Below the pieces are notes generated by a model. It saw only the letters and a program-made list of their open reading frames with translations, ran no database searches and was not told the origin of the DNA. Made by a program: the position numbers and the translations under genes. From a virus (Duplodnaviria; Heunggongvirae; Uroviricota; Caudoviricetes), in IMG/VR virus record IMGVR_UViG_2778261638_000005, positions 6,684-70,683 of that record: a DNA stretch of 64,000 nucleotides, one strand, 5' to 3'. The first letter of the stretch is position 1; every line of letters begins with the position of its first letter. Positions 7,817-64,000 of the stretch are shown here, piece by piece.

Positions 7817-7817
7817 C

Positions 7818-11978: not shown

Positions 11979-11992
11979 TTCAATGACTCCGG

Positions 11993-12864: not shown

Positions 12865-12889
12865 CGCCCGGTTCGCCGGGCATTTTTTT
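12865..12889 (+). terminator. rho-independent terminator-like hairpin
   Basis: GCCCGG-ttcg-CCGGGC stem followed by ATTTTTTT, downstream of the tRNA. Confidence 0.5.
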
Positions 12890-12900
12890 AAGGTGAGATT

Positions 12901-13257: not shown

Positions 13258-13347
13258 CACCGTGACATGTCACAAACAGCCAGCCGATGAGCTGGCTTTG
13301 TTTTATCCTCACCAGAGGATATCAGCAGCATTATCCCCTCCAACGGA

Positions 13348-15494: not shown

Positions 15495-15534
15495 AACCCA
15501 TCAAATTCATCATGCATAATCTACTCGTGACATG

Positions 15535-16288: not shown

Positions 16289-16617
16289 TCAGGGATGCTG
16301 ATATCATCACCAAGCCACCCTTGACCTTCAGACCAGCATTGCACGTAATACCCGTATTCTGTGTTCACTACGCACCACTGCGCGTCGTCCGGCATTTGCT
16401 CACTACAGCTTATCCAATCATCCGGAGTTACCGGAGAGTTGCCCGATAGCTGGTTCAACTTGTAAGTTTGGCTTACAGGTTCTGCTTCCAGCGATGCCAG
16501 TGCAATTCGTGCCAGCTCTTCCGCTTCTTCTGCTGGCAGTACAACGTTGCTACCAGGTCCGTATGTTTCGCGCCACTGCTTGATTGTCAGCAGTCGCTCT
16601 TTGGTTATAGTGGTCAT
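16234..16617 (-). CDS. DUF551-like prophage protein
   Basis: 127 aa, acidic Trp/Cys-containing C-terminal half typical of DUF551 proteins in enterobacterial prophages. Confidence 0.45.
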   Translation of the reverse strand: MTTITKERLLTIKQWRETYGPGSNVVLPAEEAEELARIALASLEAEPVSQTYKLNQLSGNSPVTPDDWISCSEQMPDDAQWCVVNTEYGYYVQCWSEGQGWLGDDISIPECDVINWMPLPEPPQEVK

Positions 16618-16874
16618 TTGTTAATCCTCAAAACTTTATGCCCGGGCGCAAAAGCACGCGTTTTGTCTTTGCTTATTCGCCAGCCATCCTTGCGCGCCTC
16701 TTTTGCACAGCCAGCCCATGACGTACCTATATACTCACCGAAGTCTGGCGACTTATATTTGCCATCTGTACATTGGAGGCAATCACAATAGAGATGCATG
16801 GTGTAACTTGCAGCGATAGCCATATCACTCTCCTTTAGTGCGCAAGTGGTTTTTCCAGCGGTTTTGCGCCGCAC
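16614..16874 (-). CDS. hypothetical protein
   Basis: 86 aa ORF, Cys-rich. Confidence 0.3.
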   Translation of the reverse strand: MRRKTAGKTTCALKESDMAIAASYTMHLYCDCLQCTDGKYKSPDFGEYIGTSWAGCAKEARKDGWRISKDKTRAFAPGHKVLRINK

Positions 16875-17182
16875 TGGGCTTTTTGCAACAGCTGTGACCC
16901 ATCACCCCGCAACACCCCGTCAACCTCACTCGTCTGTTACTAATCCTCAACCATCGCCAGACCCCAACACCGTTTCTGCTAGCTAACAGAATTTTTGCCT
17001 TACGGTTTTTCATCGTTTTGTTCTCCTGCGTTTCCTTGCTGCTCGTTTCGCCGCTGCAACGCCTGTACGGCGTTTCGGTGCCGGAATGATGCTGTCAGCC
17101 ATCAGGACATACGGCTTTGCAATTAGCGCAGAAGCCCAAAAACGAGTCGGGTACGGTAACAAGCCGATACATGCCACACGCA

Positions 17183-17854
17183 TTACTCACCTCCTTTGAT
17201 GCGAATGCCTGCGGCGCGTGGCACATTAACTTCCACGATGCGCACTGTTGGTTTGTACATCTCAATCGCTGTCAGCCAGTCAGCTCCTGTCATGCGCTTT
17301 TCCGCATCGCCATTAGTCCACTGAACCGGTACACCAATAGCCTTCATCGCAATTTCTATTTCCCCGGCAATGGCGCTTTTCCCGCAACCAGTAAAACCAG
17401 ATACAACGACAAGAACTTCGCCTTTGGCTGGTTTTATTTCCCGAGCTTCCAGTTCTGCTATGCGCTTACTTCCATCCGCGATTACTCCCTCGTAATACTC
17501 ACGCTGCTCGTTGAGTTTTGATTTTGCTTCCTCAAGCTCAACACGCAGTTCCCTTACCGTTAGCGCAATTTCCTCGTTCTCCTGGTCACGGCTTTTGATG
17601 TATTGCTGGTTTCTTTCCCGTTCATCCAGCAGCGCCTGCACTACTTCAGGGTTGAAATCTGCGATATAACGAGCGTTGTTCTCTGCGTTTTTCTGCCCAT
17701 CAAAGCCGGGCCATTTGATAACGTCTTCACATCGTTTATCACCAGGTGTATGCACCGCATATGTACCAGTACCAGACGAAATAAATGCGACCCATTCACC
17801 CTGTGTTGCCAGTTGCGCCGCTTCACGCAGTGCCTGATAGTCAATCTTGCTCAC
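17183..17854 (-). CDS. Ead/Ea22-like protein
   Basis: 223 aa; N-terminal MSKIDYQALREAAQLATQGEW and central coiled coil typical of the Ea22-like family. Confidence 0.5.
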   Translation of the reverse strand: MSKIDYQALREAAQLATQGEWVAFISSGTGTYAVHTPGDKRCEDVIKWPGFDGQKNAENNARYIADFNPEVVQALLDERERNQQYIKSRDQENEEIALTVRELRVELEEAKSKLNEQREYYEGVIADGSKRIAELEAREIKPAKGEVLVVVSGFTGCGKSAIAGEIEIAMKAIGVPVQWTNGDAEKRMTGADWLTAIEMYKPTVRIVEVNVPRAAGIRIKGGE

Positions 17855-18471
17855 TGGTTGCCTCCTTTGCGAAGCTGGGCGGCGATATCTTCGAGAACGC
17901 CATCAGAGAATGAACGGTCAAAATCGCCTTCCGGCGCATTAGCCATAAACTCAGTAGAGGTAAGAATCATCCGGGCAATATCAGCGGCGTTCTTCGCAGT
18001 ATCATCAATAAAACCAGCTTCCCAGGCAGCCAGCATTCTGTTCGCCACAAAGTAAGCGCCCTCCTTGCGTGCTTCAGTCTTCACTTCAGCCAAGAAAGCG
18101 TCGGTGGCTGGGGTTTTTATTTCGTTAAGTGCATCACTGAATCCACCTCTCTCCATACCTAGCTCTGCTTCGTAATCGGCATCGAATGCAGCGTCTTTGC
18201 AGAACTTCTTCAGCTTTGCATTCTCCGCTGCCAGCGCCGAAAACTTCTCGTGTGCCAACTTAACAGCTGCATCAGCCTGCTTAATTGACTCAATCGCTCT
18301 CTGGTGGTCTTCGGCCAGCGCATTAGCACGCACCAGTTGCACTTCCAATTGCGTTGCCAAATTGCTGATCAGCTTTGCCACACTACGCATATCAACGGCC
18401 CCACATTCTGCTTTCAGTTCCGAAGCCATCTCATGCCCGGCGGAAACTAACCCTTTGATATTACTTTCCAT
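17851..18471 (-). CDS. hypothetical protein
   Basis: 206 aa helical protein, overlaps neighbour by 4 nt. Confidence 0.4.
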   Translation of the reverse strand: MESNIKGLVSAGHEMASELKAECGAVDMRSVAKLISNLATQLEVQLVRANALAEDHQRAIESIKQADAAVKLAHEKFSALAAENAKLKKFCKDAAFDADYEAELGMERGGFSDALNEIKTPATDAFLAEVKTEARKEGAYFVANRMLAAWEAGFIDDTAKNAADIARMILTSTEFMANAPEGDFDRSFSDGVLEDIAAQLRKGGNQ

Positions 18472-18532
18472 CTTTACCCTCGCTTATCCACATAACTTAT
18501 TGATTACATTGATAACTAAAAAGATCGTCGAT

Positions 18533-18877
18533 TCAGAACTCTTCGATATTCCAGCCGCCACCTGCTTTCTTTGGCTTAACCGTTACCCCGATGATTCGGA
18601 ACGGATACTGATCTGCGGCGACTTTGGTTTTCACCCTGGCGTCGTCGGTCCAGAAACCTTTCACTTCATGCAGTTCCATCTCACCAGTGGCGAGCATCAC
18701 AGCGAAATCTGGCGTATAGAACGTGTTGTCAGCCAGCCGCAGCTTGATACCCTCGAACCGATACCAGGCGATTTCCCCTGCACGTTTACGCTGCTCAAGG
18801 TGCTGGCAATACGCAGATTCTGTTTTGTTCATCTGGCCTGTTTTGAGTCGACCAAGAGCCTGTATCTGCTTTCTCAT
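18533..18877 (-). CDS. putative PD-(D/E)XK-type nuclease family protein
   Basis: 114 aa; TPDF...GEMELHEVKG resembles a PD..ExK motif; first gene downstream of P in the resident phage. Confidence 0.4.
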   Translation of the reverse strand: MRKQIQALGRLKTGQMNKTESAYCQHLEQRKRAGEIAWYRFEGIKLRLADNTFYTPDFAVMLATGEMELHEVKGFWTDDARVKTKVAADQYPFRIIGVTVKPKKAGGGWNIEEF

Positions 18878-18880
18878 GAT

Positions 18881-18957
18881 TTACCCCTGAGGTAATTAAA
18901 AACCACATAAGACACGAAATCAATAGATTTTAGAATATTTCATTACCCAGAAGGTAA
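18881..18957. promoter_or_regulatory. two TTACC-N5-GGTAA palindromic operator-like sites
   Basis: Perfect copies at 18881-18895 and 18943-18957, same motif as at 58187-58201 and 58899-58913 in the immunity region. Confidence 0.45.
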
Positions 18958-18994
18958 TTATTGAGGCGTAAAAAAATGCGCTATCGCGCTGGTA

Positions 18995-19091
18995 TTACTT
19001 GATAAATCCTGCCGCCTTTCCCCGCCTGTATTCCTCCATCAGCCACTGCGCCGGTGTTATTCCCCCCAGGGTGGCGGCGTTAGGCATGCAC
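18995..19091 (-). pseudogene. displaced 3' end of replication gene P (separated from its 5' part by the Mu-like insertion)
   Basis: Joining host sequence at 56001-56004 to 19091 downwards with one GCAC copy gives an in-frame continuation of P for about 30 codons ending at TAA 18995-18997. Confidence 0.35.
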
Positions 19092-19100: not shown

Positions 19101-19175
19101 CAAAATCATTTGATACCGTTTTGAATTTTTTTTGATACCACCCAAAACGGCACAACGAAAAATTATTTGATACTA
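19101..19175. repeat. right-end transposase-binding repeats (three TTTGATAC cores, attR-like)
   Basis: Cores at 19109-19116, 19131-19138, 19166-19173; 22-bp spacing of the first two as for Mu R1-R2. Confidence 0.6.
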
Positions 19176-19910
19176 ATCGGGAGTGCTTTTAGGGTATGGC
19201 TGAACCCTGAATAGCTTAGTATTTAGCCGCTTCCTTGCTCGCTTGTTCAGGAACCTGATGTAGCGATACTGATTAAATTTGTGCACCACGGCACGCTCTT
19301 TATTAGCCCGTAAATACACGCCTCGTTGTCCACCGCGCTTAATTGCGTTCATCGTTATCTCGTGATACCACTCACCATCCAGCTCGTAGAACGTGCTTTC
19401 ATGGCTGCCAATAAAATCAAAATTCGACGCCTGATACACAACGCCTGCGCGTCCGCAGCGTTCGTCAGCAAAGGACTGAACCCACTCCACTGACGGATAC
19501 AGTAATCTGATAACTTTCAGCGCGTAGCTGATGGCCCGTGATTCAGAGTTGCGGGGCATGTCGTCGTGTAGCCACATGCGATTCAACTCCATATAGCCCC
19601 GGTTATCCGTTTCAAGCACGACACGACGACCTGAGTTGGGGTTAAGGGCATATCCCCACTGGAGAACGCCAACCAGATCGCGTCCGCTGAATACTCCCAG
19701 GTGGAGGTAAGAGTTATTCACAAAACGGCGGGAATAGTGCTTTGTCTGAATAATTGTGCGGGCCAGCCAGCAGGATATGGTTTCAACGCGCAGCTCCTTT
19801 GAACCATAGCCAACAATCTGGCCTTCATACTCAATAACGCACGGTTTCGTCAGAATGCGTGATTTTTTCTCTTTTCCCACAATGTTTCTCCGTGGGATGC
19901 TCGCAGGCAT
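19173..19910 (-). CDS. mom: Mom DNA-modification protein
   Basis: Last gene before the right end, overlapping com as in Mu; start codon uncertain (ATG at 19910 or GTG near 19880). Confidence 0.7.
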
Positions 19911-51709: not shown

Positions 51710-52642
51710 TTACCACCAGTTCAGTAATTTCGGGTTGCTGTAAACCTCTTTAAAAGCTGCTTTAATGTAGCCTTTGGATAGAGGAACGCCTTTCCCGCTG
51801 GCAGCCAGCCACGCCTGATTCAGCGTATGAGTTAATACACGTAATGCACCTGGTTTTTCCGCGATGCTCTGCATGAGTGATAATTCATCTTCGCCCTCAA
51901 TGCCCCAGGCTTTCGCAATTGCCACCACGTCAGCCTTTTTGGCTTTACGTAGTTGCTTTGTTCTGGCGAAACGACTGAACAAACGTGCAAGGTCATCTGT
52001 TCCCCGGTGTGTGGCTTTGGCTAACTGGTGTGGGTTGCCAATCAATACCATCCCGACGCCGGTTGCATCCTGAATGGCGCGTAACTGCTCCAGCCCGTCC
52101 ATGCTCAGGTGGTCAGCTTCATCCACAATAACCAGACCGCGTGTGCCATTCAGTTTTTTGCGAATGGCGCGGGTCAATGCGCCTTTATTCCTTTGCGGAT
52201 TATCAATTCCCAGCGCGTCTGCCAGCTCCAGCAGACACTCAGTCACTGTTGAGTGTGCAGGGGAAAGGGTCACCATCCAGGTATTAGATACACGGTTACT
52301 GTATTCACGGGCCGCAACGGTTTTACCAACACCCGGCACACCAACCAGAACGCTGATACAGCCCATAACACGCACGGTCTGAAACAGCTCGCGCAAATCA
52401 CGGAGGGTTTGTGTTTCCACAAGTTGTGGTGCGCCAGGTAACTCCAGACTTTTTTGCCAGCTCTGATGCCACATCAGTAATTTGTCATGCATCCCTTCGG
52501 TATCACCTTTGTAACGGCCTTTGCGAAGTTCAGAAAGAGTGGCCTCCGACACCCCCGCTTCTTTAGCAATAGCGCTTTGTGTTTTTACGCCGTCAGTAAT
52601 AAGTGTGTTAATCGTGTTGAAAACATCATTAATATCGGTCAT
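51710..52642 (-). CDS. B: transposition ATPase B (target DNA activator)
   Basis: 310 aa; Walker A GVPGVGKT, Walker B LVIVDEADHL; N-terminal HTH; downstream of transposase. Confidence 0.9.
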   Translation of the reverse strand: MTDINDVFNTINTLITDGVKTQSAIAKEAGVSEATLSELRKGRYKGDTEGMHDKLLMWHQSWQKSLELPGAPQLVETQTLRDLRELFQTVRVMGCISVLVGVPGVGKTVAAREYSNRVSNTWMVTLSPAHSTVTECLLELADALGIDNPQRNKGALTRAIRKKLNGTRGLVIVDEADHLSMDGLEQLRAIQDATGVGMVLIGNPHQLAKATHRGTDDLARLFSRFARTKQLRKAKKADVVAIAKAWGIEGEDELSLMQSIAEKPGALRVLTHTLNQAWLAASGKGVPLSKGYIKAAFKEVYSNPKLLNWW

Positions 52643-52715: not shown

Positions 52716-54803
52716 TCAGGCCAGCGGATCATCCTGTTCCTGTATGGCTACAAGCTTCTGCAAACCCAGCCTGAAATCGCGTTCATAATCTTCGTCGTAA
52801 TCCTCCTCATAATCCTGTTGCTGGATGGTTACCGTATTGCCAACCGGGCGATAAACATTATCCAGCCAGGGTTCAGCCTGTTTGTGCTCCAGTATCTGAA
52901 TGCCTTCATCCTCAGCATCACGAATTTTTTCCTCAGCACGTTTGCGCATTCCTTTAATACGCTGCTGTTGTTTGTGATATTCAGCACTGACAGCAAAGGC
53001 TGCGCGTTTATTGCCGTTCCATATCGCCTCACAGATAAAGCTGCCGTCCTTGCGACGTACCGTAATTCGCTCGGCGTCATGAATGTCATAACTGATAAGT
53101 ACTTTGCGACCGTGTTCGTCACGCAACTCCGGCGCGTAGTAAATATTGTTCAGCCACTGAATTTCGCACCGTCTTACCGGGCGTTCCACCATCGGGCGGA
53201 ACATGTCGCGCAGCTCAAGATCACTCAGCCACTCAATTTCGGTGCCTTCTTCTGCCAGGCGTTTTTTTCTGAACTCTGCCGGGCTGTAATGCCGCCCGTT
53301 CGGTTTCATTGGCAGCTCAGAATGCGGGCGGTTGTTGTACCATTCCACGCCTTCACGAATAGCCTCAATAAGCTCCGCCCACGATGGTAGCTCGCGCATT
53401 GCAGCTTTCTGGCGGTCGTTCAGAGGCTTGTCCTGTTGCATGGCGTTAAACGCTGAACGCAGATCACGGTTAAGTACACGCAACGATTCCCGGTCAGCAC
53501 CCTTGCCAAAATAGGTGCGATACCTCCTGGCTATACGCATCGGCAGTGTCCGGTTCAGGCGTTCAATAATGCCGCGCCCCTGTGGATTACCGGCAATACC
53601 GGTAGGGTGTTTAATCCCCAGGCGGGGCAGAATACCCACGATCTCTTTGTCCAGTATGTCAGCCGTTTCACCAGAACCATTATCCGAGTAATACAGAAAC
53701 GGTTTTCCGTGGTTGCGAATGCCGTGCTGTATCGCACCGGCAACGGCGAACACGTTCTCGGCAAGGTCAAGACTCCAGCCAACAACAAACCGGGTTCCAC
53801 CGTCGATCACAAATGTAACTTCCGGTGAGAATGGACGCCCGTGGATCGGATGTGCACATTTCAGCTTCATACCGTGACCGTCACCAATCCAGACATAATT
53901 CACCGGCATAGCTGTCCAGTCGCGGCGGGTGAATCCTTCAAGCTGACGGTATTCACTGCCGGTAACGCGCCCTTTTTGTTTCACCACTTCCGGCAGTTTT
54001 TTCATGGCATACCGGACAACATCATAGGAAGGCATCACCTCCAGCATGTATGGTTCGTCCGCATGGCGACGCTGCCAATCAGCGACAAAATCCTCATAGG
54101 CTTCAGACATAGGCCTGCCGTTAGCCTGACGATACTGCGCCAGAAATTCAGGCAGCCAGCTAATTTCTTCCGGTTTTATTTCGTCGCGCTTTCCTGGTGC
54201 CAGTAACAGCAGTCGTTCTGCGGCATTCTGTGCTTTGTTAAACGCAGCTATCCAACGTTTGAGCGTAATTGCGCTCAGAGTTCGCTCTTTTCCTTTACGG
54301 GCATTAGCAGTAATGACCAAAGATTCCAGGCGTTCTTCCAGGTTACCCTGCGCTAACCGCGACACAATAAAACGTATAGCGCTGGCACAACTGAATCCCG
54401 GCTCCTGGCTAATTCGTAGAACTTCACAGACAAGAGCAATGCGCGCTTCTGCAACTTTACGTTGATTTTCCGTAAGCGCATTCAGACGCTCTTCTACCAA
54501 TTGTGGCGAACCGCGATATGCCTCAACAGGCTGTACAACATTTTGTTTGCGTTCACGCTTTACAGGAGGCTGGGTAGTTATCTCCCGCGGGGCGCTTGCC
54601 ATCAGTTGAGCTACATGTCGCTCACGTAACGCCCGTTGTGTAACCGGAGGGAGGCAGTCGATGCTGTATTCAATGGTTTTTGAACCCGCACGTTTGCGCC
54701 TGAAATGCTCAGATGAGGCCAGTTTCCTTATGGAATACCGCACCCCTTGCGCAGTTCCCGGCATACCTGGTAACCCTACAAGCTCATTAACTGATACAAA
54801 CAT
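52716..54803 (-). CDS. A: DDE transposase A
   Basis: 695 aa; Mu-A-like catalytic core; N-terminal end-binding domain diverged from Mu A as recalled. Confidence 0.9.
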   Translation of the reverse strand: MFVSVNELVGLPGMPGTAQGVRYSIRKLASSEHFRRKRAGSKTIEYSIDCLPPVTQRALRERHVAQLMASAPREITTQPPVKRERKQNVVQPVEAYRGSPQLVEERLNALTENQRKVAEARIALVCEVLRISQEPGFSCASAIRFIVSRLAQGNLEERLESLVITANARKGKERTLSAITLKRWIAAFNKAQNAAERLLLLAPGKRDEIKPEEISWLPEFLAQYRQANGRPMSEAYEDFVADWQRRHADEPYMLEVMPSYDVVRYAMKKLPEVVKQKGRVTGSEYRQLEGFTRRDWTAMPVNYVWIGDGHGMKLKCAHPIHGRPFSPEVTFVIDGGTRFVVGWSLDLAENVFAVAGAIQHGIRNHGKPFLYYSDNGSGETADILDKEIVGILPRLGIKHPTGIAGNPQGRGIIERLNRTLPMRIARRYRTYFGKGADRESLRVLNRDLRSAFNAMQQDKPLNDRQKAAMRELPSWAELIEAIREGVEWYNNRPHSELPMKPNGRHYSPAEFRKKRLAEEGTEIEWLSDLELRDMFRPMVERPVRRCEIQWLNNIYYAPELRDEHGRKVLISYDIHDAERITVRRKDGSFICEAIWNGNKRAAFAVSAEYHKQQQRIKGMRKRAEEKIRDAEDEGIQILEHKQAEPWLDNVYRPVGNTVTIQQQDYEEDYDEDYERDFRLGLQKLVAIQEQDDPLA

Positions 54804-54805: not shown

Positions 54806-55042
54806 TTATGCCACCTTACGAGCGTAACGGCTGGGCCAGATCTCCTCCGGCGCAACACCAATAGCATCAGCAATAATGCGCTCATATTTTGGGCATTTGC
54901 GGTACAGGGCATTCTTTAAAGAATCCTGGTTTAAACCGGCTTCAATGGACAGAGAGCGTAAAGTAAAACCTTTTACATGCACCGCCGCGACAACATGCGC
55001 GGGGTGCCAGTCCTGTTTAACAACTTCATTTATAGACATCAT
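54806..55042 (-). CDS. ner: Ner-like DNA-binding regulator
   Basis: Probable start MMSINEV at 55042 with AAGGA RBS; C-terminal EEIWPSRY matches Ner family. Confidence 0.8.
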   Translation of the reverse strand: MMSINEVVKQDWHPAHVVAAVHVKGFTLRSLSIEAGLNQDSLKNALYRKCPKYERIIADAIGVAPEEIWPSRYARKVA

Positions 55043-55182
55043 TCGTTTATCCTTAAAAGTTATCTGCGCGGATAACACCGCCGGATAATCTCTACAGATA
55101 AATATTTGATCACTACAAAAGAAAAGTAAAGGTGTTTTATCTCTTTCTTTGGTTGTTTTTATCTACAAAAGGATATTTCTTT
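55043..55182. promoter_or_regulatory. divergent early promoter/operator region between ner and c
   Basis: 140-bp AT-rich intergenic region between divergent repressor and ner genes. Confidence 0.5.
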
Positions 55183-55767
55183 ATGAATCATATGGTTAAC
55201 AGAAAAGAAAGAAGCACTGAAAAAGAAAGTGATTTTTCTTTTCCTGTGTTTCAAAAAGAAAGCATTAAAGAGCGCCTAGCCATGCTAATGCGCGGGCGCT
55301 CCAAGACTGCCGTGGCGAAGGCGTGGGGGCTACCGTTCTCAACACTTAACAACTACTTTGAGAAAGATGCGACACCATCTCTACAAGTAGCTAGTCAGAT
55401 TGCTTTTGCAGAAGGGGTGAGCATTGATTGGCTTGTTTTTGGCAAGGAGGATATAGAACCAATATCACCTAAAATAGATGAAAACGTCCAATTGCCCCTA
55501 GATATAACGCTACAGCGCCTTCTTGCTATACTAAGTGCTTTAGAAGCATCAGAGGCAGAGCGATTATCAAAAATCCTCGCGCTAAATGGAGCTAAGTACT
55601 TGTCACGGTTACTTGAACCAGAGAATCAAGAACTAATCCAACTTGAAGGACGAAAACGTGCAGCAGCTCTACTTTTAGATCATTTATCGGATGAAAGAGT
55701 TAGAGAGATTTTGGCAGAAATTGAAAGCGATAAACTCTCAAGTAGTTTAGAATCGAAGGCGGGCTAA
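55183..55767 (+). CDS. Mu-type c repressor
   Basis: 194 aa from ATG 55183 (AAGGA RBS); divergent from ner, reads toward left end. Confidence 0.7.
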   Translation: MNHMVNRKERSTEKESDFSFPVFQKESIKERLAMLMRGRSKTAVAKAWGLPFSTLNNYFEKDATPSLQVASQIAFAEGVSIDWLVFGKEDIEPISPKIDENVQLPLDITLQRLLAILSALEASEAERLSKILALNGAKYLSRLLEPENQELIQLEGRKRAAALLLDHLSDERVREILAEIESDKLSSSLESKAG

Positions 55768-55829: not shown

Positions 55830-56000
55830 GTATCAAATATTTTTTCGTTTTTAGCTTTCTTTGCGACAGTAGTATCAAATCACATGTTGTGCGCATAACA
55901 CTGTTTTACGTCATAACTGTTTGTTTTATCCCATCAAATCCCGTTTGATCCACTTTCCTCCCGGATTTTTCAGCAGTATCAAATGATTTACCTCTCTATA
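55830..56000. repeat. left-end transposase-binding repeats (three GTATCAAA cores, attL-like)
   Basis: Cores at 55830-55837, 55872-55879, 55976-55983; spacing 42 and 104 bp mirrors Mu L3-L2-L1; adjacent sequence GAAAAATCCGGGAGG...GATGGGAT resembles the Mu left end. Confidence 0.6.
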
Positions 56001-56639
56001 GCACCCGAAACTTCGCCCTGGTGGATGGTAAACGTCTCTCCCTGTTTCCGGAGGCGTACTCATGGGTTCTGGCTTTGCCTGTATGCTGATCACCGGATCG
56101 GGTATCTGCTGTCCGGAAGCCACCTTTTTCGCCCAATCATCGAGCAGCCTGCGCGCGTGTTTCTCAACCTCAATCTCGCTAAGCTGGCGCTGATACATTG
56201 CACGGCGGGTATCACATACGACCCAGTACATAACCGGATGCCGCCACGGGAATCTTTCGGGACCACCAGGATATAAACTTTTTTCCTTGCTGTACCGGTG
56301 AAACTCCGTCATCACATCGTCAATGGTGACGCCAAGAACCATCTTGCTGTCTTTGCACCACTTGATGAATTGCCCTGGCGACGGCCAGAACGGAGAATCA
56401 CTGGCGCGGGCGTGGCGCATACCAGCAGAAACCTGTTCACGGGTTCGGATCCCCCCTTCAGCAAACGCAGCAATCCACTGCTGTTTTGCAGCAACTTCCT
56501 GCTCTGGCGTCTTCAGGTTGGTTACCACTGCCGCCGGAAACAGTTGTTTCAACTGTTTGAAAAGGGCATCAACAAGCCTCTCTGCTGACATGTTCACTAC
56601 GTTGTCATTGTTGGTGTACTGATGCTCATAACCTGACAT
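55926..56639 (-). CDS. lambda P-like replication protein, 3' end interrupted by Mu-like insertion
   Basis: FAEGGIRTREQVSAGMRHARASDSPFWPSPGQFIKWCKD matches lambda P core; the last 24 codons are encoded by the Mu-like left end. Confidence 0.75.
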   Translation of the reverse strand: MSGYEHQYTNNDNVVNMSAERLVDALFKQLKQLFPAAVVTNLKTPEQEVAAKQQWIAAFAEGGIRTREQVSAGMRHARASDSPFWPSPGQFIKWCKDSKMVLGVTIDDVMTEFHRYSKEKSLYPGGPERFPWRHPVMYWVVCDTRRAMYQRQLSEIEVEKHARRLLDDWAKKVASGQQIPDPVISIQAKPEPMSTPPETGRDVYHPPGRSFGCYREVNHLILLKNPGGKWIKRDLMG

Positions 56640-56689
56640 GCGAGAAAGGGCCTCTCCGTCACGGTTTTGTATTGCGGTAAAAACGTTGT

Positions 56690-57505
56690 TCACAAGAAAT
56701 CCTCCCATGCTTCAGGGCTGTTCCAGTGCGGAACGTTGTTATCAGGTAATGTTGATTGCTTCTGTCTGCTAATCTGCAGCCGCCTTGCCAGCTTCTGCTC
56801 CCACTGTGCCTGATGGTATGCCTTACCCTCAGCCATCCAGTAAATTCTGAACTCTGCAAGTTCCTGTGCCGTTGGCAGACTGTCCAGGTAGATCCCCTGC
56901 AATGAGCTTTTCCGAAGAAAGTCATCTGATGGCTGCCATTGTTCATGCATGACAAATTTGCCTAATTGCCCTGGCCCACCAGGAGGAACAAAGTTATTCA
57001 TCACGGCGTTGTTTGCGCCGGGGTCATGAGGCACAGAATTCCCGTTTTTTGTCCTGCTCTCCCTCTCTTGGTTAAATGACTGGTTATATGACTGGTTCTG
57101 GATCCCGTTTTTGGGATCATTCAACATCCCGTTTTTGGGATCATTCAACATCCCGTTTTTGGTTATATTACCGTTTTCGGGAACATTACCGTTTTCGGGT
57201 TCATTCCCCCCTTCCCGGTTGCCTTTAATGTTCCCGTTTTTGGTTATATTAAGAGAGAAAACCCGCACTCTTTTCGTCGCTCCCTTTCTCTCTTCGGTAT
57301 CTGAAATAAGCCCCATTTTCATGAGCGATATAAGCCCGGCCTGCACGGTTTTTTTATTCAGGCAAGTGTCTTTAACGAGGCGTTCTATGCTGGGGTAGCA
57401 GAGGTTATATTCATCGGCTCTGTCAGCCATCGAGAGCAGTATGAGCTTTAATGATGAGCTACCTGGATCTGTCTCCCAGGCCCAATCTGTTGCATGTCTG
57501 CTCAT
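56690..57505 (-). CDS. lambda O-like replication initiator
   Basis: 271 aa; repetitive Asn/Gly-rich central region encoded by DNA iterons; precedes P. Confidence 0.75.
   Translation of the reverse strand: MSRHATDWAWETDPGSSSLKLILLSMADRADEYNLCYPSIERLVKDTCLNKKTVQAGLISLMKMGLISDTEERKGATKRVRVFSLNITKNGNIKGNREGGNEPENGNVPENGNITKNGMLNDPKNGMLNDPKNGIQNQSYNQSFNQERESRTKNGNSVPHDPGANNAVMNNFVPPGGPGQLGKFVMHEQWQPSDDFLRKSSLQGIYLDSLPTAQELAEFRIYWMAEGKAYHQAQWEQKLARRLQISRQKQSTLPDNNVPHWNSPEAWEDFL
57120..57270. repeat. replication origin iterons inside the O-like gene
   Basis: Tandem repeats such as ATCCCGTTTTTGGGATCATTCAAC (x2), CCCGTTTTTGGTTATATT, ACCGTTTTCGGG (x2). Confidence 0.7.
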
Positions 57506-57520
57506 GATTAATCTCCGCTA

Positions 57521-57784
57521 TCAGCTTGAATGTTGTGGGGAGGAATTAATCATGATCTGCTTAATTTCTGCCCTGATGCGACGGTTTGATTCCATGGTGC
57601 ACTCAACACAGTGTCCGTTGTAAACCCAGCGTTCACTGTCATGTCCGTGCTTACATGGTTTTCCGGTGTAGTAGCGTTTAAGTCCGCGCTTTGCGGCATC
57701 AATACGTGTAATGATTTCCATGGTAAGCCCTGTTATTAGTATTGGGATTACGGTTATTTTGTGCTGACACAAAAAAAAGATCAA
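57521..57784 (-). CDS. small Cys/His-containing regulator (cII-position gene)
   Basis: Probable start MEIITRIDAAKRG; CKHGH...GHCVEC. Confidence 0.35.
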   Translation of the reverse strand: MIFFLCQHKITVIPILITGLTMEIITRIDAAKRGLKRYYTGKPCKHGHDSERWVYNGHCVECTMESNRRIRAEIKQIMINSSPQHSS

Positions 57785-57871
57785 CCAGATTTGGTTTTTT
57801 ATTACCTTTAAGGTGCGAATAGATATGAAAAGACCGCCGGATGGCGGTCTACAGAGGTTTGTGGCTGGATA

Positions 57872-58102
57872 TCATGAGTAGAAGAAGTATGCCAGTTCTG
57901 CTTTTGAGCGCAGCCATTGTCTTGTTTTACAGGCTTTAAAAAGCCCATTCATCAATACTTTACCTGGCATTTTGCGCTTACCTGTTAAGTGAGTCTGGAT
58001 ATAGTGACTCGTCGTTCCGGCTTCCTGTGCGAAGGCTTCACGCTCATCCGGAGTAAGTGCAAGCCAGTGCTTTTTGAAATCGAAATGTCCGTTATCGCTC
58101 AT
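57872..58102 (-). CDS. Cro/YdaS-like HTH regulator
   Basis: 76 aa, divergent from repressor gene, HTH-like TPDEREAFAQEAGTTSHYIQ. Confidence 0.5.
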   Translation of the reverse strand: MSDNGHFDFKKHWLALTPDEREAFAQEAGTTSHYIQTHLTGKRKMPGKVLMNGLFKACKTRQWLRSKAELAYFFYS

Positions 58103-58256
58103 AGCTATTGCCTGATATTTATTTCAGATAATAAATATTCACCCATAAGGTAACAAAAATCAAGGATAGTTACCTATGGGGTGCATTTACCTGTTGGGTA
58201 ATATTGCTTTAAATTGAATCATCTACTGATTCATATATGAGGCGATTTTCCAGAAA
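58103..58256. promoter_or_regulatory. immunity-region divergent promoter/operator
   Basis: Between divergent repressor and cro-like genes; TTACC-tgttg-GGTAA at 58187-58201 and GGTAAC...GTTACC inverted repeat at 58149-58174. Confidence 0.55.
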
Positions 58257-58841
58257 ATGAAAAATATCCAGGACGTCCGCAGGCAAAATCTCAACGACTT
58301 GATCGACCGTGAATTCAATGGTGTTCAGACGCGGATGGCAGAAAAACTTGGAACTCAGGCAAATCTGGTAAACCGCTGGGCTCTTGGCAAGAAGGTTATC
58401 GGCGACCAGGTTGCGCGAAAAATTGAAGCTGCCGCCAATAAACCACGTAACTGGCTTGATATCGATCGCTCGCTTTCTCAGGAGGGTTTTCAGCCTGTTG
58501 GACCAAGCGACATTGGTCAGCTGGCGGCTCACAACCTGGAACGCTGGATGAGTGAAAGCCGCGACCTTTCAACTCAGGGAAAACTTCACCGCGCATCCGG
58601 CGTCGCCCAGGTGACAATCAGCCGCCTGTTAAACAATGAGGTCAGCGTTTCCATTTCCACTCTGGAGAATGTTGCATCTGCATTCGGGCGTCACGGATAT
58701 GAACTACTGATTCACCCGCACGACCCTGCAACTATCAACTATGACCGCTCGCGCTACGCATTGTTACCTGAAACCGAGAAAGCAAAGATCGAAAGTTACA
58801 TTGAATTTGTCATCAACCAGAACGAAAAAAACAAACAATAA
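58257..58841 (+). CDS. putative prophage repressor (two HTH-like segments, no peptidase domain)
   Basis: 194 aa; position and orientation of cI relative to cro-like and O/P. Confidence 0.5.
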   Translation: MKNIQDVRRQNLNDLIDREFNGVQTRMAEKLGTQANLVNRWALGKKVIGDQVARKIEAAANKPRNWLDIDRSLSQEGFQPVGPSDIGQLAAHNLERWMSESRDLSTQGKLHRASGVAQVTISRLLNNEVSVSISTLENVASAFGRHGYELLIHPHDPATINYDRSRYALLPETEKAKIESYIEFVINQNEKNKQ

Positions 58842-58863
58842 AATCATATTTTTCAGTAAGTAA

Positions 58864-58886
58864 GCCGCCATTTGGCGGCTTTTTTA
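58864..58886 (+). terminator. rho-independent terminator after repressor gene
   Basis: GCCGCC-attt-GGCGGC followed by TTTTTTT. Confidence 0.6.
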
Positions 58887-58896
58887 TTGTCTATCT

Positions 58897-58915
58897 AATT
58901 ACCTTGCAGGTAATT
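58897..58915. promoter_or_regulatory. operator palindrome AATTACC-N5-GGTAATT at leftward-type promoter
   Basis: Perfect palindrome with core 58899-58913, followed by TTGACA at 58934. Confidence 0.5.
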
Positions 58916-58994
58916 TTTTTAACTCATATCTATTGACATCAAACCAAATACGCATAATTATTACCTCAACGGTAACAAGCCGAGGTGACAAGTT

Positions 58995-59147
58995 ATGCAG
59001 TGGAAAATTATCAACGGTTGGTACTGTGTTACTGCATGCGGATTCATGAGCTGGAAGTTCCGCACCTTACAGGAAGGCATTAAGTGGGCTTTCGTCAGCA
59101 AAGAAGCTCGCGATGTGGCCAACGATAACGAGATATGGGAGGGCTGA
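58995..59147 (+). CDS. small protein, first gene of the early-left-type operon (not in ORF track)
   Basis: 50 aa from ATG 58995 with GAGG RBS; stop 2 nt before next gene start. Confidence 0.3.
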   Translation: MQWKIINGWYCVTACGFMSWKFRTLQEGIKWAFVSKEARDVANDNEIWEG

Positions 59148-59149
59148 TA

Positions 59150-59449
59150 ATGAACGTTAATCAGCAGAAAAATCTTCAAAAAATCATGCTGGCGTTCGAC
59201 AAGGACTACCGCCTGTCAGAACAGCTATATGACCGACAAGTTGAACTGATTGAGAGCATCCGACTTCATCAACTGGCCTCAACTTTCGACGTTGTAACAG
59301 GCAAAGGCGTTCGCCAGGAAGTACTGGAGGCCGCTAAAGACAGCCCTGAGTTCGAAGAACTAATGGATGCCTACCGGCGAGAGGCAATGGCAATTATCGC
59401 CAGCTGGGATCTGGCAGATCAGCTTGATGGGCAGAGGGACGCGGCATGA
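59150..59449 (+). CDS. hypothetical early protein
   Basis: Probable start MNVNQQKN at 59150; overlaps exonuclease start. Confidence 0.45.
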   Translation: MNVNQQKNLQKIMLAFDKDYRLSEQLYDRQVELIESIRLHQLASTFDVVTGKGVRQEVLEAAKDSPEFEELMDAYRREAMAIIASWDLADQLDGQRDAA

Positions 59450-60267
59450 AACCGGGAATTTATTTCGACATCAGCAACGAAGACTACCACGCCGGTGACG
59501 GCGTGAGTAAGTCGCAACTGGACATGGTTGCCAAGAATCCGGCGCTTCTTAAATGGGTTCAGGCAGCACCAGAAGACGAAGAGAAAAAGTCTGCACTGGA
59601 TATGGGAACCGCATTGCACTGCCTGCTTCTGGAACCTGGAGAATTCGACAAACGCTTCATCGTTTCACCGAAATTCGATCGTCGGACAAAACAAGGTAAA
59701 GCTGACGAAGAAGCATTTCTTCGTGATGTGACGGATATGGGTATTGCGGTACTTGATGTCGAGCAGTGGCGAAAACTGGAGCTGATGCGTGATAGCGCAA
59801 TGGCTCATCCGGCGGCACGCTGGATGTTGGAAGCACCTGGTTACTGCGAAGCATCAATGTACTGGAACGATGAAGAAACGGGTGAGTTGTGCCGAATTCG
59901 TCCAGACAAATGGCTGAACGAGCACAACGTGATCGTCGACGTGAAAAAGGTTGCGGATATGGACCGTTTTGCACGCCACATCGAGGAATTCCGCTACCAC
60001 GTGCAGGACGCAATGTACCGCGAAGGCGCAATGAGGGTTACTGGTCAGCCGCATGGTTTTTTCTTTCTTGCCGTGAGCGAAAGCATTGATTGTGGTCGGT
60101 ATCCGGTACGCGTGTTCGAGCTGGATGCGCAGGATGTCGATGCCGGGCACACTCTGTTCCGCCGGGATCTGAATACCTATCACGAATGCCGCATCAATGA
60201 TGAATGGGGCGGTGTGGAAATCATTAAACGCCCTGAGTGGGCACGCAAACAGGATATGTACATATGA
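59446..60267 (+). CDS. PD-(D/E)XK recombination exonuclease (YqaJ/RecE-type)
   Basis: 273 aa, upstream partner of the annealase; acidic/Lys motif IVDVKK. Confidence 0.6.
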   Translation: MKPGIYFDISNEDYHAGDGVSKSQLDMVAKNPALLKWVQAAPEDEEKKSALDMGTALHCLLLEPGEFDKRFIVSPKFDRRTKQGKADEEAFLRDVTDMGIAVLDVEQWRKLELMRDSAMAHPAARWMLEAPGYCEASMYWNDEETGELCRIRPDKWLNEHNVIVDVKKVADMDRFARHIEEFRYHVQDAMYREGAMRVTGQPHGFFFLAVSESIDCGRYPVRVFELDAQDVDAGHTLFRRDLNTYHECRINDEWGGVEIIKRPEWARKQDMYI

Positions 60268-61205
60268 GCAACGACATCGCAAACATCAACGCACCAGTAG
60301 ACACAGCAATCGCTGGAACTGCTGCAACTATTTTCAGCCCAGACGGCTTGAACCAACTGATGAAATTCGCCGAGGTAATGGCGCAAAGCCGCGTAACGGT
60401 ACCGGCGCACCTCGCCGGGAAACCAGCTGATTGCATGGCCGTGGCAATGCAGGCTGCGCAGTGGGGAATGAACCCGTTTGCCGTGGCTCAGAAAACCCAT
60501 GTTGTGAACGGCACGCTAGGTTATGAAGCCCAATTAGTAAACGCAGTTATCTCAACAATGTCGCCAACAAAAGATCGCATCAACTACGAGTGGTTCGGGC
60601 CGTGGGAACGCGTGATCGGTAAGTTTGTTGAGAAAACATCCAAAAACGGCAATCCGTATATCGCACCAGGCTGGACTCTAAAAGACGAAGAAGGTTGCGG
60701 TGTTCGCGTATGGGCAACCATGAAGGGCGAGGATCAACCTCGAGTGCTTGAGTTAATGCTGTCTCAAGCACAGGTAAGAAACTCCACACTTTGGGCCAGT
60801 GATCCGAAACAACAACTCGCATACCTTGCGACAAAACGCTGGTCTCGCTTGCACTGTCCTGACGTAATCATGGGCGTCTACACACCAGACGAATTACAGG
60901 AAACGGCACCGCGCGTTGAGCGAGACATTACTCCGCAAACGATCACTGCTGCGGGAATGAACAGTCTGATCAACGCTAAACAAGTGAAAAAGCCTGATGA
61001 GCAAACGCGTAAAGCGGATAGCCGTGCTCCAGAAGAAATGCTAATGGCCTTTACCAGCGCAGCGATGAATTACAGCACTGTCTCCGAACTGGATAAGGCT
61101 TACAAATACATTGCACAAAAACTTTCAGATGATGACGAACTGCTGGCAAAAGCCACCGACGTTTACAGCGTTCGTCGGGAAGAATTAAACGAAACATCTA
61201 TGTAA
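60264..61205 (+). CDS. RecT/Red-beta family single-strand annealing protein
   Basis: Start ATG overlaps exonuclease stop (ATGA); ERDITPQTI resembles lambda Bet ERDITPVND. Confidence 0.6.
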   Translation: MSNDIANINAPVDTAIAGTAATIFSPDGLNQLMKFAEVMAQSRVTVPAHLAGKPADCMAVAMQAAQWGMNPFAVAQKTHVVNGTLGYEAQLVNAVISTMSPTKDRINYEWFGPWERVIGKFVEKTSKNGNPYIAPGWTLKDEEGCGVRVWATMKGEDQPRVLELMLSQAQVRNSTLWASDPKQQLAYLATKRWSRLHCPDVIMGVYTPDELQETAPRVERDITPQTITAAGMNSLINAKQVKKPDEQTRKADSRAPEEMLMAFTSAAMNYSTVSELDKAYKYIAQKLSDDDELLAKATDVYSVRREELNETSM

Positions 61206-61254
61206 CCACCACCGCGGCGCCATACGCGCCGCACTGCAACCAAGAGAGGTATTT

Positions 61255-61503
61255 ATGAAAGGTGCATTAGGTAAGAAGGAACTCCTGGCGGTGGTGCCAC
61301 TGTCATGGAGCACTATCGACCGTATGGAGCGCGCAGGGGAATTTCCTAAACGCTGGTATATCACCGATAAACGCTGCGCCTGGAACCGTGATGAAGTTGA
61401 GCGTTGGCTTGATGAACGTCAGGCAGCAAGCCCGGCAGAGTTCCAGGGTAAAAAACCTCCTGTTCAGCAACGTGTATATCGTCCCGTGAGCAACGCGGCA
61501 TGA
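61255..61503 (+). CDS. AlpA/excisionase-like DNA-binding protein
   Basis: 82 aa, winged-helix type motif LSWSTIDRMERAGEFPKRW. Confidence 0.5.
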   Translation: MKGALGKKELLAVVPLSWSTIDRMERAGEFPKRWYITDKRCAWNRDEVERWLDERQAASPAEFQGKKPPVQQRVYRPVSNAA

Positions 61504-61612
61504 GTGCGCTGCTAAGGCACTGGAGCAAATGGTCAGGATGGTACTTATTCCTGGCTTCTGTTTCAGCATGGCTTTATCTGCTGGCATTAATTTTCAGAGA
61601 GGGTTGGATTAA

Positions 61613-61912
61613 GTGAGAAAGTTAAGCCGACTTGAAAAATATCACATGAACAAGGTTTCAATGCGCAGTCCGTCAAAGATTGTCGCAGTTACTCCTGCGG
61701 CGATAGAGTTCGAAAAACGCGCAATTGAAAGAGAGAAAAAAGGACAGTTCCGCATTGCCGCTCACCTTTGGCTTCAGTGTATGGATGTTGCTTCTGGTGA
61801 TGTTGAGCGTGCAAGGATCGCGGTTCGCAGGGACCAATGTATCACAAAAGGTAACGGCCTTCGCCGTGGCGACTATAGCGGCATAGGATGTTGTGGGGTG
61901 GTTTATGACTAA
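61613..61912 (+). CDS. small regulator, possibly ANR-like
   Basis: Probable start MNKVS; FRIAAHLWLQCMDVASGDVERARIAVRRDQC pattern. Confidence 0.3.
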   Translation: MRKLSRLEKYHMNKVSMRSPSKIVAVTPAAIEFEKRAIEREKKGQFRIAAHLWLQCMDVASGDVERARIAVRRDQCITKGNGLRRGDYSGIGCCGVVYD

Positions 61913-62555
61913 GAAATACACACTAATCTATGCAGATCCACCCTGGGTATACCGGGACAAAGCCGCAGATGGTAATCGCGGTGCCGGTTTTAAATATCCG
62001 GTTATGAGTGTGCTGGATATCTGCCGCCTTCCTGTGTGGGATTTGGCCGATGAAAACTGTCTGTTGGCCATGTGGTGGGTGCCAACACAACCACTCGAAG
62101 CACTAAAAGTTGTTGAAGCCTGGGGATTCCGTCTGATGACCATGAAGGGATTCACGTGGATAAAATGTGGTAGTCGACAACCAGATAAACTGGTTATGGG
62201 TATGGGTCACATGACTCGCGCCAATAGTGAAGATTGCCTGTTTGCAGTAAAGGGAAAACTACCTCCGCGCATTAATGCAGGGATCGTTCAGTCATTTACC
62301 GCACCGCGGCTTGAGCATTCAAGAAAACCAGATGTCGTTCGTGAAAAACTTGTGCAATTGTTAGGCGATGTTTCTCGCATTGAACTGTTCGCCCGCCAGT
62401 CGTCTCATGGCTTCGATGTTTGGGGTAATCAGTGCGAAGACCCGGCAGTGCAACTACACCCTGGATACGCGTTGGATATTGCCAGATTAACAAATGCATT
62501 CAGCAATGCTCCGCTGTCACCAACAGACAACCAGGGGCGGGAGCGTGCAGCATGA
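61893..62555 (+). CDS. MT-A70 family N6-adenine DNA methyltransferase (orphan)
   Basis: LIYADPPW catalytic motif near N-terminus; no adjacent restriction gene. Confidence 0.8.
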   Translation: MGWFMTKKYTLIYADPPWVYRDKAADGNRGAGFKYPVMSVLDICRLPVWDLADENCLLAMWWVPTQPLEALKVVEAWGFRLMTMKGFTWIKCGSRQPDKLVMGMGHMTRANSEDCLFAVKGKLPPRINAGIVQSFTAPRLEHSRKPDVVREKLVQLLGDVSRIELFARQSSHGFDVWGNQCEDPAVQLHPGYALDIARLTNAFSNAPLSPTDNQGRERAA

Positions 62556-62746
62556 ACCGGGCATCACCAGCAGATTTAAGGAAATGCCTTGAAACTGCAA
62601 ACATGCTTGCACACAGCGGGATCAGGTTTGTTCCAATTCCCGCTGTCACTGATGCTGAATTTGCAACACTGTCAGCAATATTCGCAGATAAAATTGAATC
62701 ACTGGCAGCAGAAGCCGAGATGGAAGAAAATCAGCAGAATAATTAA
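62552..62746 (+). CDS. small hypothetical protein
   Basis: 64 aa, ATG overlapping methyltransferase stop (ATGA). Confidence 0.4.
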   Translation: MNRASPADLRKCLETANMLAHSGIRFVPIPAVTDAEFATLSAIFADKIESLAAEAEMEENQQNN

Positions 62747-62749
62747 ACG

Positions 62750-64000
62750 TTATTCCCCCGCCATCCACTTCTCAAACTTCGACGGGGAGAACGGAATCAG
62801 ATCCGTATGCTCCCCGTTAATCCAGGAATCAATCATATCGGCCCACTGCTGCAACATGTAGGCGCGCTGTCTGGCATATTCCGCTTTGTTATATACGGCG
62901 CGCACACCTTTCTGCTCATGTGCCAGAGCCTTTTCAATCCAGTCTGAAGGATAACCAGCCTCATGCAACAACGTACTGGCTGTACGGCGCATATCATGTA
63001 CAGTGAAGTCCTGAATATGCTCACCATCTTCATTTATTATTTTCACCGTTCTGTCGATCAGAGAGTTCAGCGCGGCATTAGATAATGGCTTCCGGAAGTT
63101 GTAACGACCAGGAACCAGATATTCACTTCCACCAGCGCACATCTGCAACCCTACCAATATATCCTGTGCCTGTTTAGGCAGGTAAATAACGTGCGCCCGG
63201 CTTCCCTTCATGCGGTCTGAAGGAATTGTCCATGTCCATTTTTTAAAATCTATTTCATCCCACGTTGCATTGGTGAACTCGCCTTTACGAACCATAGTGA
63301 TAAGCACCAGCTTTAAAGCCATTTTCATAGTGCCCATAGCACCAATGGCATCCAGCGTACGGAAGAACAGGCCAATTTCTTCTGGTGTCAGTGTTCGCTC
63401 TCGTGGTTTAAATATGGCGATAGACGAAGGTTTAATGTCAGCCGCAGGATTAAACAAACCATGACCACGGTCATTGGCGTGACGGTATACGCTGCTGATG
63501 ATCTCCCTGGCCTGTACTGCTGTTGCCCGGCCACCGCGTTCGACAATCCGGTCACACAAATCACGAACCATCGATGTGGTAATTTCAGCCATCATTTTGT
63601 TGCCAAGAACCGGAAGTATGTCACGGTCTATCACTGCCTGCTTCATTGCGCGGGTACTTTCAGCCAGGATGACGTGTTTCATATAACTGTCGGTATGTAC
63701 CGAAAACGTCTCGGCACCACGAATCTTTTTGATACCGTCACGTTTAGCCGTAGCCGGTGACTGGCCTGCTTTAAGCAGCTTCTTTGCAGCAATCAGTTCT
63801 TCTCGAGCTTCTGCCAGGCTGATACCGTCACGCCCATACTGCCCGATTACCAGTGTTTCGCGGCGACCGTTGATACGGTAGTCATAGCGAAACGAGACCG
63901 TACCTGACGTAAGTACAGCTACATACAGCCCGTCACGATCGGAGACTTTGTATAGTTTGTCCTGCGGCTTGAGGTTTTTTAATTTTGTATCGGTAAGCAC
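62750..64000 (-). CDS. tyrosine integrase (P4-type family), start at or just beyond window end
   Basis: 416 aa; N-terminal LTDTKLKNLKP; C-terminal catalytic region with R...HDMRRT...Y motif pattern. Confidence 0.85.
   Translation of the reverse strand: MLTDTKLKNLKPQDKLYKVSDRDGLYVAVLTSGTVSFRYDYRINGRRETLVIGQYGRDGISLAEAREELIAAKKLLKAGQSPATAKRDGIKKIRGAETFSVHTDSYMKHVILAESTRAMKQAVIDRDILPVLGNKMMAEITTSMVRDLCDRIVERGGRATAVQAREIISSVYRHANDRGHGLFNPAADIKPSSIAIFKPRERTLTPEEIGLFFRTLDAIGAMGTMKMALKLVLITMVRKGEFTNATWDEIDFKKWTWTIPSDRMKGSRAHVIYLPKQAQDILVGLQMCAGGSEYLVPGRYNFRKPLSNAALNSLIDRTVKIINEDGEHIQDFTVHDMRRTASTLLHEAGYPSDWIEKALAHEQKGVRAVYNKAEYARQRAYMLQQWADMIDSWINGEHTDLIPFSPSKFEKWMAGE

Follow-up and report, generated by a model that had tools for sequence, protein, structure and literature searches.

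The window analysed here is a stretch of 64,000 nucleotides (nt) from a virus of the class Caudoviricetes (IMG/VR record IMGVR_UViG_2778261638_000005, positions 6,684 to 70,683), and its positions 61255-62746 hold a module of five small genes that run towards an integrase gene. The module forms the part farthest from the promoter in the early-left (PL-type) operon of a prophage of the phiV10/epsilon15 type (Uetakevirus), located beside guaA in Escherichia coli. One of its genes encodes a predicted MT-A70 methyltransferase, whose closest characterised relative, from a Shiga toxin (Stx) phage, works with a partner protein, PNB-2, that we did not detect here. The reading that we consider probable, with some reserve, is that the operon end supplies an excisionase-like AlpA protein, an independently acting homologue of lambda Orf63 and a methyltransferase that acts on DNA without PNB-2.

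The five open reading frames (ORFs) are all on the + strand and tightly packed. They encode an AlpA-like protein (61255-61503, 82 amino acids (aa)), a membrane protein with a single hydrophobic helix (61500-61616, 38 aa), a PerC-family protein (61613-61912, 99 aa from a GTG), the MT-A70 methyltransferase (61905-62555, 216 aa from an ATG or 220 aa from a GTG at 61893) and a DUF1382 or Orf63-like protein (62552-62746, 64 aa), homologous to phiV10 p36, p35, p34, p33 and p32, respectively. Successive genes overlap by ATGA, by GTGA, by 8 nt and, at 62552-62555, again by ATGA, which joins the TGA of the methyltransferase gene to the ATG of the 64-aa ORF. The start of the PerC-family ORF is ambiguous: besides GTG 61613 there are ATG 61646 (88 aa) and ATG 61661 (83 aa, RefSeq), these two being the starts chosen by the phiV10 and RefSeq annotators. 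A P4-type tyrosine integrase gene follows on the - strand (62750-64000, 416 aa, GTG start at the final base of the window; Pfam Arm-DNA-bind_3, Phage_int_M and Phage_integrase), so that transcription is convergent, with the stop codons of the integrase gene and the 64-aa ORF 3 nt apart. The RefSeq integrase coding sequence (CDS) of a collinear prophage has equal length and adjoins guaA. An earlier note, made from the sequence of the window, had described a prophage accessory module close to the integrase gene and transcribed in its direction; both descriptions are confirmed, with every feature where that note had placed it, but it had overlooked a fifth gene, the 38-aa membrane-protein ORF. 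Against diverged homologues (synonymous rate dS > 0.15), the median ratios of nonsynonymous to synonymous substitution rates (dN/dS) lay between 0.04 and 0.16, indicating purifying selection on all five ORFs (AlpA-like, 0.08; 38-aa, 0.16; PerC, 0.10; MT-A70, 0.04; DUF1382, 0.06). Because each ORF also matches a curated family, the module genes are more than chance reading frames.

The module is already known and annotated, as a block of a well-known phage genus in which every protein belongs to a described family. Its DNA (1561 nt) matches two complete E. coli chromosomes with annotated copies of the genes, NZ_AP022036 and NZ_CP067426, at 100% identity and is 98.4% identical to p36-p32 of Escherichia phage phiV10 (Uetakevirus; NC_007804), which carries the same annotations. 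Of 5426 complete E. coli genomes, 559 carry it, about a tenth. Positions 1-19091 and 56001-64000 of the window match phiV10-type phages at 97-98%, and in an intact relative the prophage adjoins guaA. The five genes, their order, their orientation and their convergence on the same P4-type integrase are identical in phiV10 and the RefSeq E. coli prophages, and the module itself shows no substantive difference; the prophage of the window differs from phiV10 in being broken by a Mu-like prophage of about 36.9 kb in a replication gene. The significance of the module is therefore modest, since it is an ordinary one; the earlier description was largely right, while the weight that it placed on a coupled small ORF is unsupported, as discussed below.

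The operon assignment follows from what lies upstream, since no intervening + strand terminator is predicted. A gene for a repressor with two helix-turn-helix motifs (58257-58841) is followed by a terminator (58862-58881) and by a sigma-70-like sequence on the + strand, TTGACA-17-AATTAT (58933-58961), the sole + strand promoter-like site between that terminator and position 62746 and thus a candidate PL-type promoter. The annotation of epsilon15 places repressor-binding sites at the equivalent position. After two small ORFs come the recombination genes, both on the + strand: a RecE-like PD-(D/E)XK exonuclease (DUF3799; 59446-60267, Pfam 79.6 bits and the RefSeq annotation of the collinear prophage) and a RecT-family single-strand annealing protein (60264-61205, Pfam RecT 151.9 bits, coordinates of the RefSeq CDS mapped from locus L001). 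The AlpA, 38-aa, PerC, MT-A70 and Orf63-like genes complete the order. Between recT and the AlpA-like gene, a GC-rich stem-loop on the + strand (GCGGCGC-CAUAC-GCGCCGC, 61214-61232), with a perfect 7-bp stem, a 5-nt loop and no T-run, fails the terminator consensus; the segment 61200-61260 folds at -17.3 kcal/mol (z = -2.84). Its epsilon15 equivalent is annotated 'stem-loop; transcriptional pausing', and it could be a processing or antitermination site. A terminator scan of the operon predicted none on the + strand before the integrase gene, and between operon and integrase gene there are just weak hairpins inside int. The operon would be repressed in the lysogen and turned on at induction or infection. 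In function, the module corresponds to the exo-xis region of lambda, where orf63 is found as well.

The 216-aa protein is identified by its sequence as an MT-A70-family class beta N6-adenine methyltransferase, with predicted activity. It scores 78.5 bits against Pfam MT-A70 (PF05063; gathering score 23.9) over profile positions 1-172 of 172 and 256 bits against a PADLOC Type II methyltransferase model. The DPPW motif, which had been read correctly from the sequence in the earlier note, occupies residues 11-14 (61935-61946) and lines up with the same motif in MTA1 and METTL3. The order of motifs is circularly permuted, with DPPW (motif IV) N-terminal and the conserved HSRKP and ELFAR C-terminal; among 22-28 aligned homologues DPPW, GxG..TRANSEDC, HSxKP, ELFAR and WGN are conserved and the last ~30 residues are variable. 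We found about 2240 homologues at E ≤ 1e-10, mostly single-domain proteins of ~195 aa, with the top-scoring ones from Enterobacterales, and tblastn located relatives in 516 phage records, among them 188 of Vibrio phages and more than 110 of Stx2a phages, the latter at ~83% identity. Among solved structures, Tetrahymena MTA1 (E 3.5e-13) and METTL3 (E 4e-6) were the best matches in sequence, and with an AlphaFold2 model (predicted local distance difference test 73.8, predicted template modelling score 0.72) both also headed the Foldseek matches in the PDB (METTL3, E 2.9e-15; MTA1, root-mean-square deviation ~3 Å over 179 columns). METTL3-METTL14 and the ciliate MTA1c thus share the fold and motif IV, but they are built as heteromers that include an inactive paralogue and further subunits for binding nucleic acid, whereas the phage enzyme is a bare catalytic domain of ~190 residues with a short variable tail, and the prophage encodes no paralogue. 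For the phiV10 or epsilon15 methylase itself, the literature yielded nothing useful.

An enzyme of this kind could be the modification half of a restriction-modification system with its nuclease elsewhere, or a decaying, inactive remnant. The PADLOC model that it matches is built from Type II methyltransferases, and prophage methyltransferases are often found to lack a detectable motif in methylomes (PMC4659465, PMC6602927). The search for a nuclease covered the operon, the phiV10-like part of the window and the annotation of the intact collinear prophage, the part of the prophage to the left of the window start lying outside it. No restriction enzyme was found among the module neighbours, all of which belong to other families, and PADLOC matched the methyltransferase only. 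Further ORFs from the phiV10-like regions encode Ea22-like, DUF551, NinX, DUF1064 and Gp49 proteins, and the annotation of the intact collinear prophage contains no nuclease other than the RecE-like exonuclease. The claim that the methyltransferase has no partner restriction enzyme therefore holds as far as the neighbours, PADLOC and the collinear prophage can tell. In addition, the gene moves between phages without a constant neighbour, and its invariant catalytic motifs and dN/dS of 0.04 speak against decay. We regard a restriction-modification half or a remnant as extremely improbable.

Among characterised enzymes, the nearest relative is M.EcoPA8orf6770P/M.EcoGV of Stx phages, and by its alignment the window enzyme falls in the same clade. 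M.EcoPA8orf6770P, gp5 of Stx phage phiPA8, was studied by Gong, Chakraborty and Koudelka (Nucleic Acids Research 2024; PMC10810198). Its relatives are annotated in REBASE as N6-methyladenine DNA methyltransferases of GATC, and M.EcoGV, alone and overproduced, methylates GATC in vivo (PMC10810198). M.EcoPA8orf6770P itself binds PNB-2, the product of the upstream overlapping gene, at 1:1, and as a complex the two proteins favour 16S rRNA and 30S subunits; spontaneous induction and virulence are both increased by the gene but not by a DPPW-to-APPA mutant (PMC10810198). The earlier suggestion of a role in anti-restriction or gene regulation thus overlooks the lone experimental precedent, a Stx-phage relative that with its upstream partner prefers 16S rRNA. 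The Stx phage TL-2011c carries the published phiPA8 arrangement, as both the mutagenesis primer site and the gp7 terminator are present. The window enzyme is 83% identical to TL-2011c gp13 over residues 1-187, where the alignment stops; the last ~29 residues are unrelated, the window tail being different but conserved. These last residues have been proposed to matter for PNB-2 binding (PMC10810198), and the window enzyme lacks the C-terminal ~27 residues of the STEC type. In both systems, a temperate E. coli phage encodes an MT-A70 enzyme with DPPW close to its integrase end, with a DUF1382 gene downstream; they differ in the tail and in the upstream place of PNB-2, which here is taken by a non-homologous PerC-family gene.

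PNB-2 (phrog_1680) was not found in the window (best tblastn E 0.33; 1.9 with HK639_37 as query), nor did it match anywhere in the 80 closest viral-contig loci, the set on which all synteny counts below are based. The PerC-like protein was considered as a PNB-2 relative on the basis of a BLASTP match to HK639_37 (E 0.005, 32 residues) and a weak tblastn match in the PerC gene, and was rejected: the two have no Pfam or PHROG family in common, and hhalign gives the families a 1% probability of homology. Phage HK639 (locus L006, 2912-4160) has a PNB-2 homologue (55% identity) upstream of a methyltransferase that shares only 44-50% identity with the window enzyme; a 55-aa ORF separates the two genes. 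Because this methyltransferase is a distant one, the pairing of PNB-2 with MT-A70 seems older than the Stx-phage lineage.

Because its known partner PNB-2 is absent, the window methyltransferase most likely acts on DNA. It would be an active N6-adenine enzyme of the M.EcoGV/M.EcoPA8orf6770P clade, probably working as a homodimer; class beta methyltransferases are obligate dimers (PMC7544214). GATC is the sole specificity reported for any enzyme of this clade expressed alone. The enzyme would then give extra methylation to phage DNA during replication, serving protection or timing, and would not exercise the 16S-rRNA activity of the Stx holoenzyme.

Several points weigh against this reading. 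E. coli already has Dam, and a GATC activity would be partly redundant. The promoter at 58933-58961 was recognised by its match to the consensus only. With a Mu-like insertion in the replication gene, a role in the lytic cycle may no longer be exercised in this strain. Purified M.EcoPA8orf6770P alone is nearly inactive on DNA, unmethylated GATC DNA included, and on RNA (PMC10810198), and a partner-less DNA methyltransferase role is therefore not secure. Lastly, a stationary-phase promoter drives expression of the Stx-phage gene in lysogens (PMC10810198), so silence in the lysogen cannot be assumed for the window operon.

The near inactivity of the 83%-identical Stx-phage enzyme without the 1:1 product of its upstream overlapping gene (PMC10810198) also raises the alternative that the window enzyme is the catalytic subunit of another two-protein holoenzyme, which would methylate rRNA or another specific target to tune spontaneous induction. 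The targeting subunit would be the coupled upstream PerC-family protein or, less likely, the Orf63-like dimer. Solved MT-A70 enzymes are heteromers (METTL3-METTL14 and MTA1-MTA9-p1-p2), the PerC gene overlaps the methyltransferase start by 8 nt, the PerC-then-methyltransferase order occurs in about 69 of the 80 loci, and the tail proposed for PNB-2 binding is replaced here by a different, conserved one. There are also rare in-frame PerC-methyltransferase fusions, P0003 and P0004 (297 and 263 aa), but with just 2-3 sequences per cluster they could reflect frameshifts or faulty assembly. The PerC-like family lacks homology to PNB-2, and only a single phage lineage shows the synteny of PerC with the methyltransferase; the AlpA and 38-aa genes are linked just as closely there, so this synteny is not independent evidence. 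Moreover, epsilon15 has another small ORF and a gap between the PerC and methyltransferase genes, other contexts of the methyltransferase lack PerC, and the Orf63-like gene is missing from more than half of the 80 loci. On balance, we think such a holoenzyme rather unlikely for the window, and the general form of the idea, in which the PNB-2-less MT-A70 enzymes of phiV10-type prophages are a second type of phage MT-A70 holoenzyme with PerC or the Orf63-like dimer as targeting subunit, strikes us as very doubtful. If true, it would give the PerC/Pch regulators or the exo-xis proteins of lambda a part in the methylation of nucleic acids, possibly rRNA, and in the control of prophage induction.

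The distribution of the gene is of modest interest. The MT-A70 enzyme has been described as apparently unique to Stx-encoding phages (PMC10810198); contrary to that impression of Stx specificity, a catalytic core 83% identical to it is present in non-Stx phiV10-type prophages of 559 of the 5426 complete E. coli genomes. Because PNB-2 gives the Stx-phage enzyme its rRNA preference, these PNB-2-less copies offer a natural way to ask whether the catalytic subunit by itself methylates DNA (at GATC), lacks activity or has acquired some other partner.

The 64-aa protein encoded downstream is, on profile and pairwise comparisons, a homologue of lambda Orf63. It scores 105.7 bits against Pfam DUF1382 (PF07131; cut-off 27), covering positions 1-60 of 60, matches PDB entry 8DSB (E 5.8e-13), which is lambda Orf63 (PMC10869804), and is 50% identical to the product of lambda orf63 over 62 residues (E 9e-21). 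Orf63 is a dimeric, pro-lytic exo-xis protein (PMC10869804), and its effect on the lysis-lysogeny balance has been reported for lambda and for Stx phages. The window homologue would act, as in lambda, as an independent pro-lytic developmental factor. Both proteins have similar lengths and are encoded in an early-left operon between recombination genes and int. In lambda, orf63 lies between orf60a and orf61 with no methyltransferase gene nearby, and int and xis are co-directional with it, whereas the gene of the window homologue comes last in its operon, directly beside an integrase gene that converges on it. An Ead/Ea22-like protein (17183-17854, -, Pfam 141.9 bits) is encoded on the other prophage arm, where DUF551, NinX and DUF1064 genes adjoin it; in this phage type, homologues of lambda exo-xis genes are therefore divided between both early arms.

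The earlier note had emphasised the ATGA overlap between the methyltransferase gene and this ORF. The overlap is real, but no special link follows from it, because start/stop overlaps join four successive gene pairs and the downstream gene is exchangeable. An Orf63-like gene follows the methyltransferase gene in 32 of the 80 loci. In 14 others (L013, L017, L018, L050-L052, L055 and others) its place is taken by a gene for a NinI-like Ser/Thr phosphatase, coupled alike, as in phage PAS61 (L007:3853-4512), and in about 17 the integrase gene comes next, with neither DUF1382 nor phosphatase between. Two IMG/VR contigs (L058 and L059) have the Orf63-like gene upstream, between PerC and the methyltransferase, and in nine loci the methyltransferase gene stands in a replication-gene context from which the other module genes are absent. 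Downstream of the methyltransferase gene, epsilon15 carries a different small gene, gp28, and HK639 carries unrelated genes. Because TL-2011c shares the methyltransferase-then-DUF1382 order, with a different junction, while other relatives vary, the adjacency is recurrent but not obligate, and the slot beside the integrase stop behaves as an exchangeable cargo position.

These observations bear on the proposal of a dedicated two-gene unit, in which the 64-aa ORF is translationally coupled to the methyltransferase gene and the small protein serves, for example, as a regulator or specificity factor. It could draw on the ATGA at 62552-62555 and on the recurrence of the same order in TL-2011c, an unrelated Stx phage. 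Overlaps nevertheless occur throughout the junctions of the operon, DUF1382 follows the methyltransferase in well under half of the loci, and Orf63 has a pro-lytic phenotype of its own (PMC10869804). Lambda and other lambdoid phages have orf63 without this methyltransferase, which speaks against such a unit, and a PerC-DUF1382 fusion (P0235) exists in which the methyltransferase gene is gone. The 64-aa ORF was accordingly rejected as a methyltransferase partner on its Orf63 identity and variable synteny, and a dedicated unit is in our view highly improbable.

Fusions of this kind are rare. In P0235, the N-terminus of PerC is joined to DUF1382 and the methyltransferase is deleted; P0206 and P0290 belong with P0003, P0004 and P0235 to a set of junction variants whose kinds include a 38-aa ORF-PerC fusion and a fusion of a PNB-2 fragment with an MT-A70 fragment. 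The variants form clusters of 1-3 members and may be frameshift or assembly errors.

At the other end of the module, the 82-aa protein exceeds the cut-off of Pfam Phage_AlpA (PF05930; 24.2 bits against 21) and matches phrog_66, 'excisionase and transcriptional regulator' (E 2e-16), and the AlpA-family protein of PDB entry 8c3t (E 1.8e-11), on which we found no paper. The earlier name 'AlpA-like regulator' is right as to the family; a free-standing regulator is not supported. The phrog_66 match taken together with the annotation of epsilon15 points to an AlpA-family winged-helix protein that is most likely the excisionase, or directionality factor, of the adjacent P4-type integrase, which it would serve in this role. 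Like the directionality factors of the AlpA/Vis/TorI type, it belongs to the AlpA Pfam family, has about 80 aa and is encoded near a P4-type integrase with Arm-DNA-bind_3; its gene differs in being separated from int by four genes and convergent with it. The phage attachment site attP lies beyond the window end.

The 38-aa ORF matches phrog_17484, 'membrane protein' (E 2.6e-27), and is annotated in both phiV10 and epsilon15. For the 99-aa protein, which had been called possibly ANR-like, homology searches return the PerC family instead: it scores 30.1 bits against Pfam PerC (PF06069; cut-off 22.6) over residues 35-80 and matches phrog_868, 'transcriptional activator', over residues 1-99 (E 1.8e-61). 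The NCBIfam ANR model (NF033650) stays below its threshold (23.5 bits against 32) and aligns with 43 residues (35-77) that the PerC model also covers. PerC of enteropathogenic E. coli and the prophage-encoded Pch proteins of enterohaemorrhagic E. coli belong to the same Pfam family, and Pch genes, like the window gene, are carried on horizontally transferred or prophage DNA (PMC7369912). The small prophage-borne protein of the window matches the PerC profile in the conserved core only (residues 35-80).

The Mu-like prophage that interrupts the phiV10-type prophage spans about 36.9 kb (window 19092-56000) and disrupts replication gene P (ORF 55926-56708, -) in its 3' part. The phiV10-type host prophage of the window is probably replication-defective. 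The closest matches of the Mu-like prophage are Yersinia phage vB_YpM_5 (97%), D108 (97%) and SfMu (95%). It encodes MuA-like (52716-54803, -) and MuB-like (51710-52642, -) proteins, and by position only, 54806-55078 (-) and 55132-55767 (+) are candidates for ner and c. With the boundary marked by a slash, its junctions read ...GGCATGCAC / TAAAGCGC... and ...CTCTATA / GCACCCGAAAC, and the uninterrupted site in NZ_AP022036 is GGCATGCACCCGAAAC. From this comparison, GCAC is duplicated, with 4 nt visible; the target duplication of Mu is normally 5 nt. No complete E. coli genome of the collection covered 80% or more of window positions 40000-64000. The last gene of the Mu-like prophage (19173-19910, -) encodes a Mom-family DNA-modification protein (Pfam Mom, 252.8 bits), so that the window holds, with the MT-A70 gene, two unrelated phage genes for nucleic-acid modification. 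In the late/packaging region of the phiV10-type prophage there is a tRNA-Arg gene (anticodon TCT; 12627-12703, +), which is present likewise in the annotated relative.

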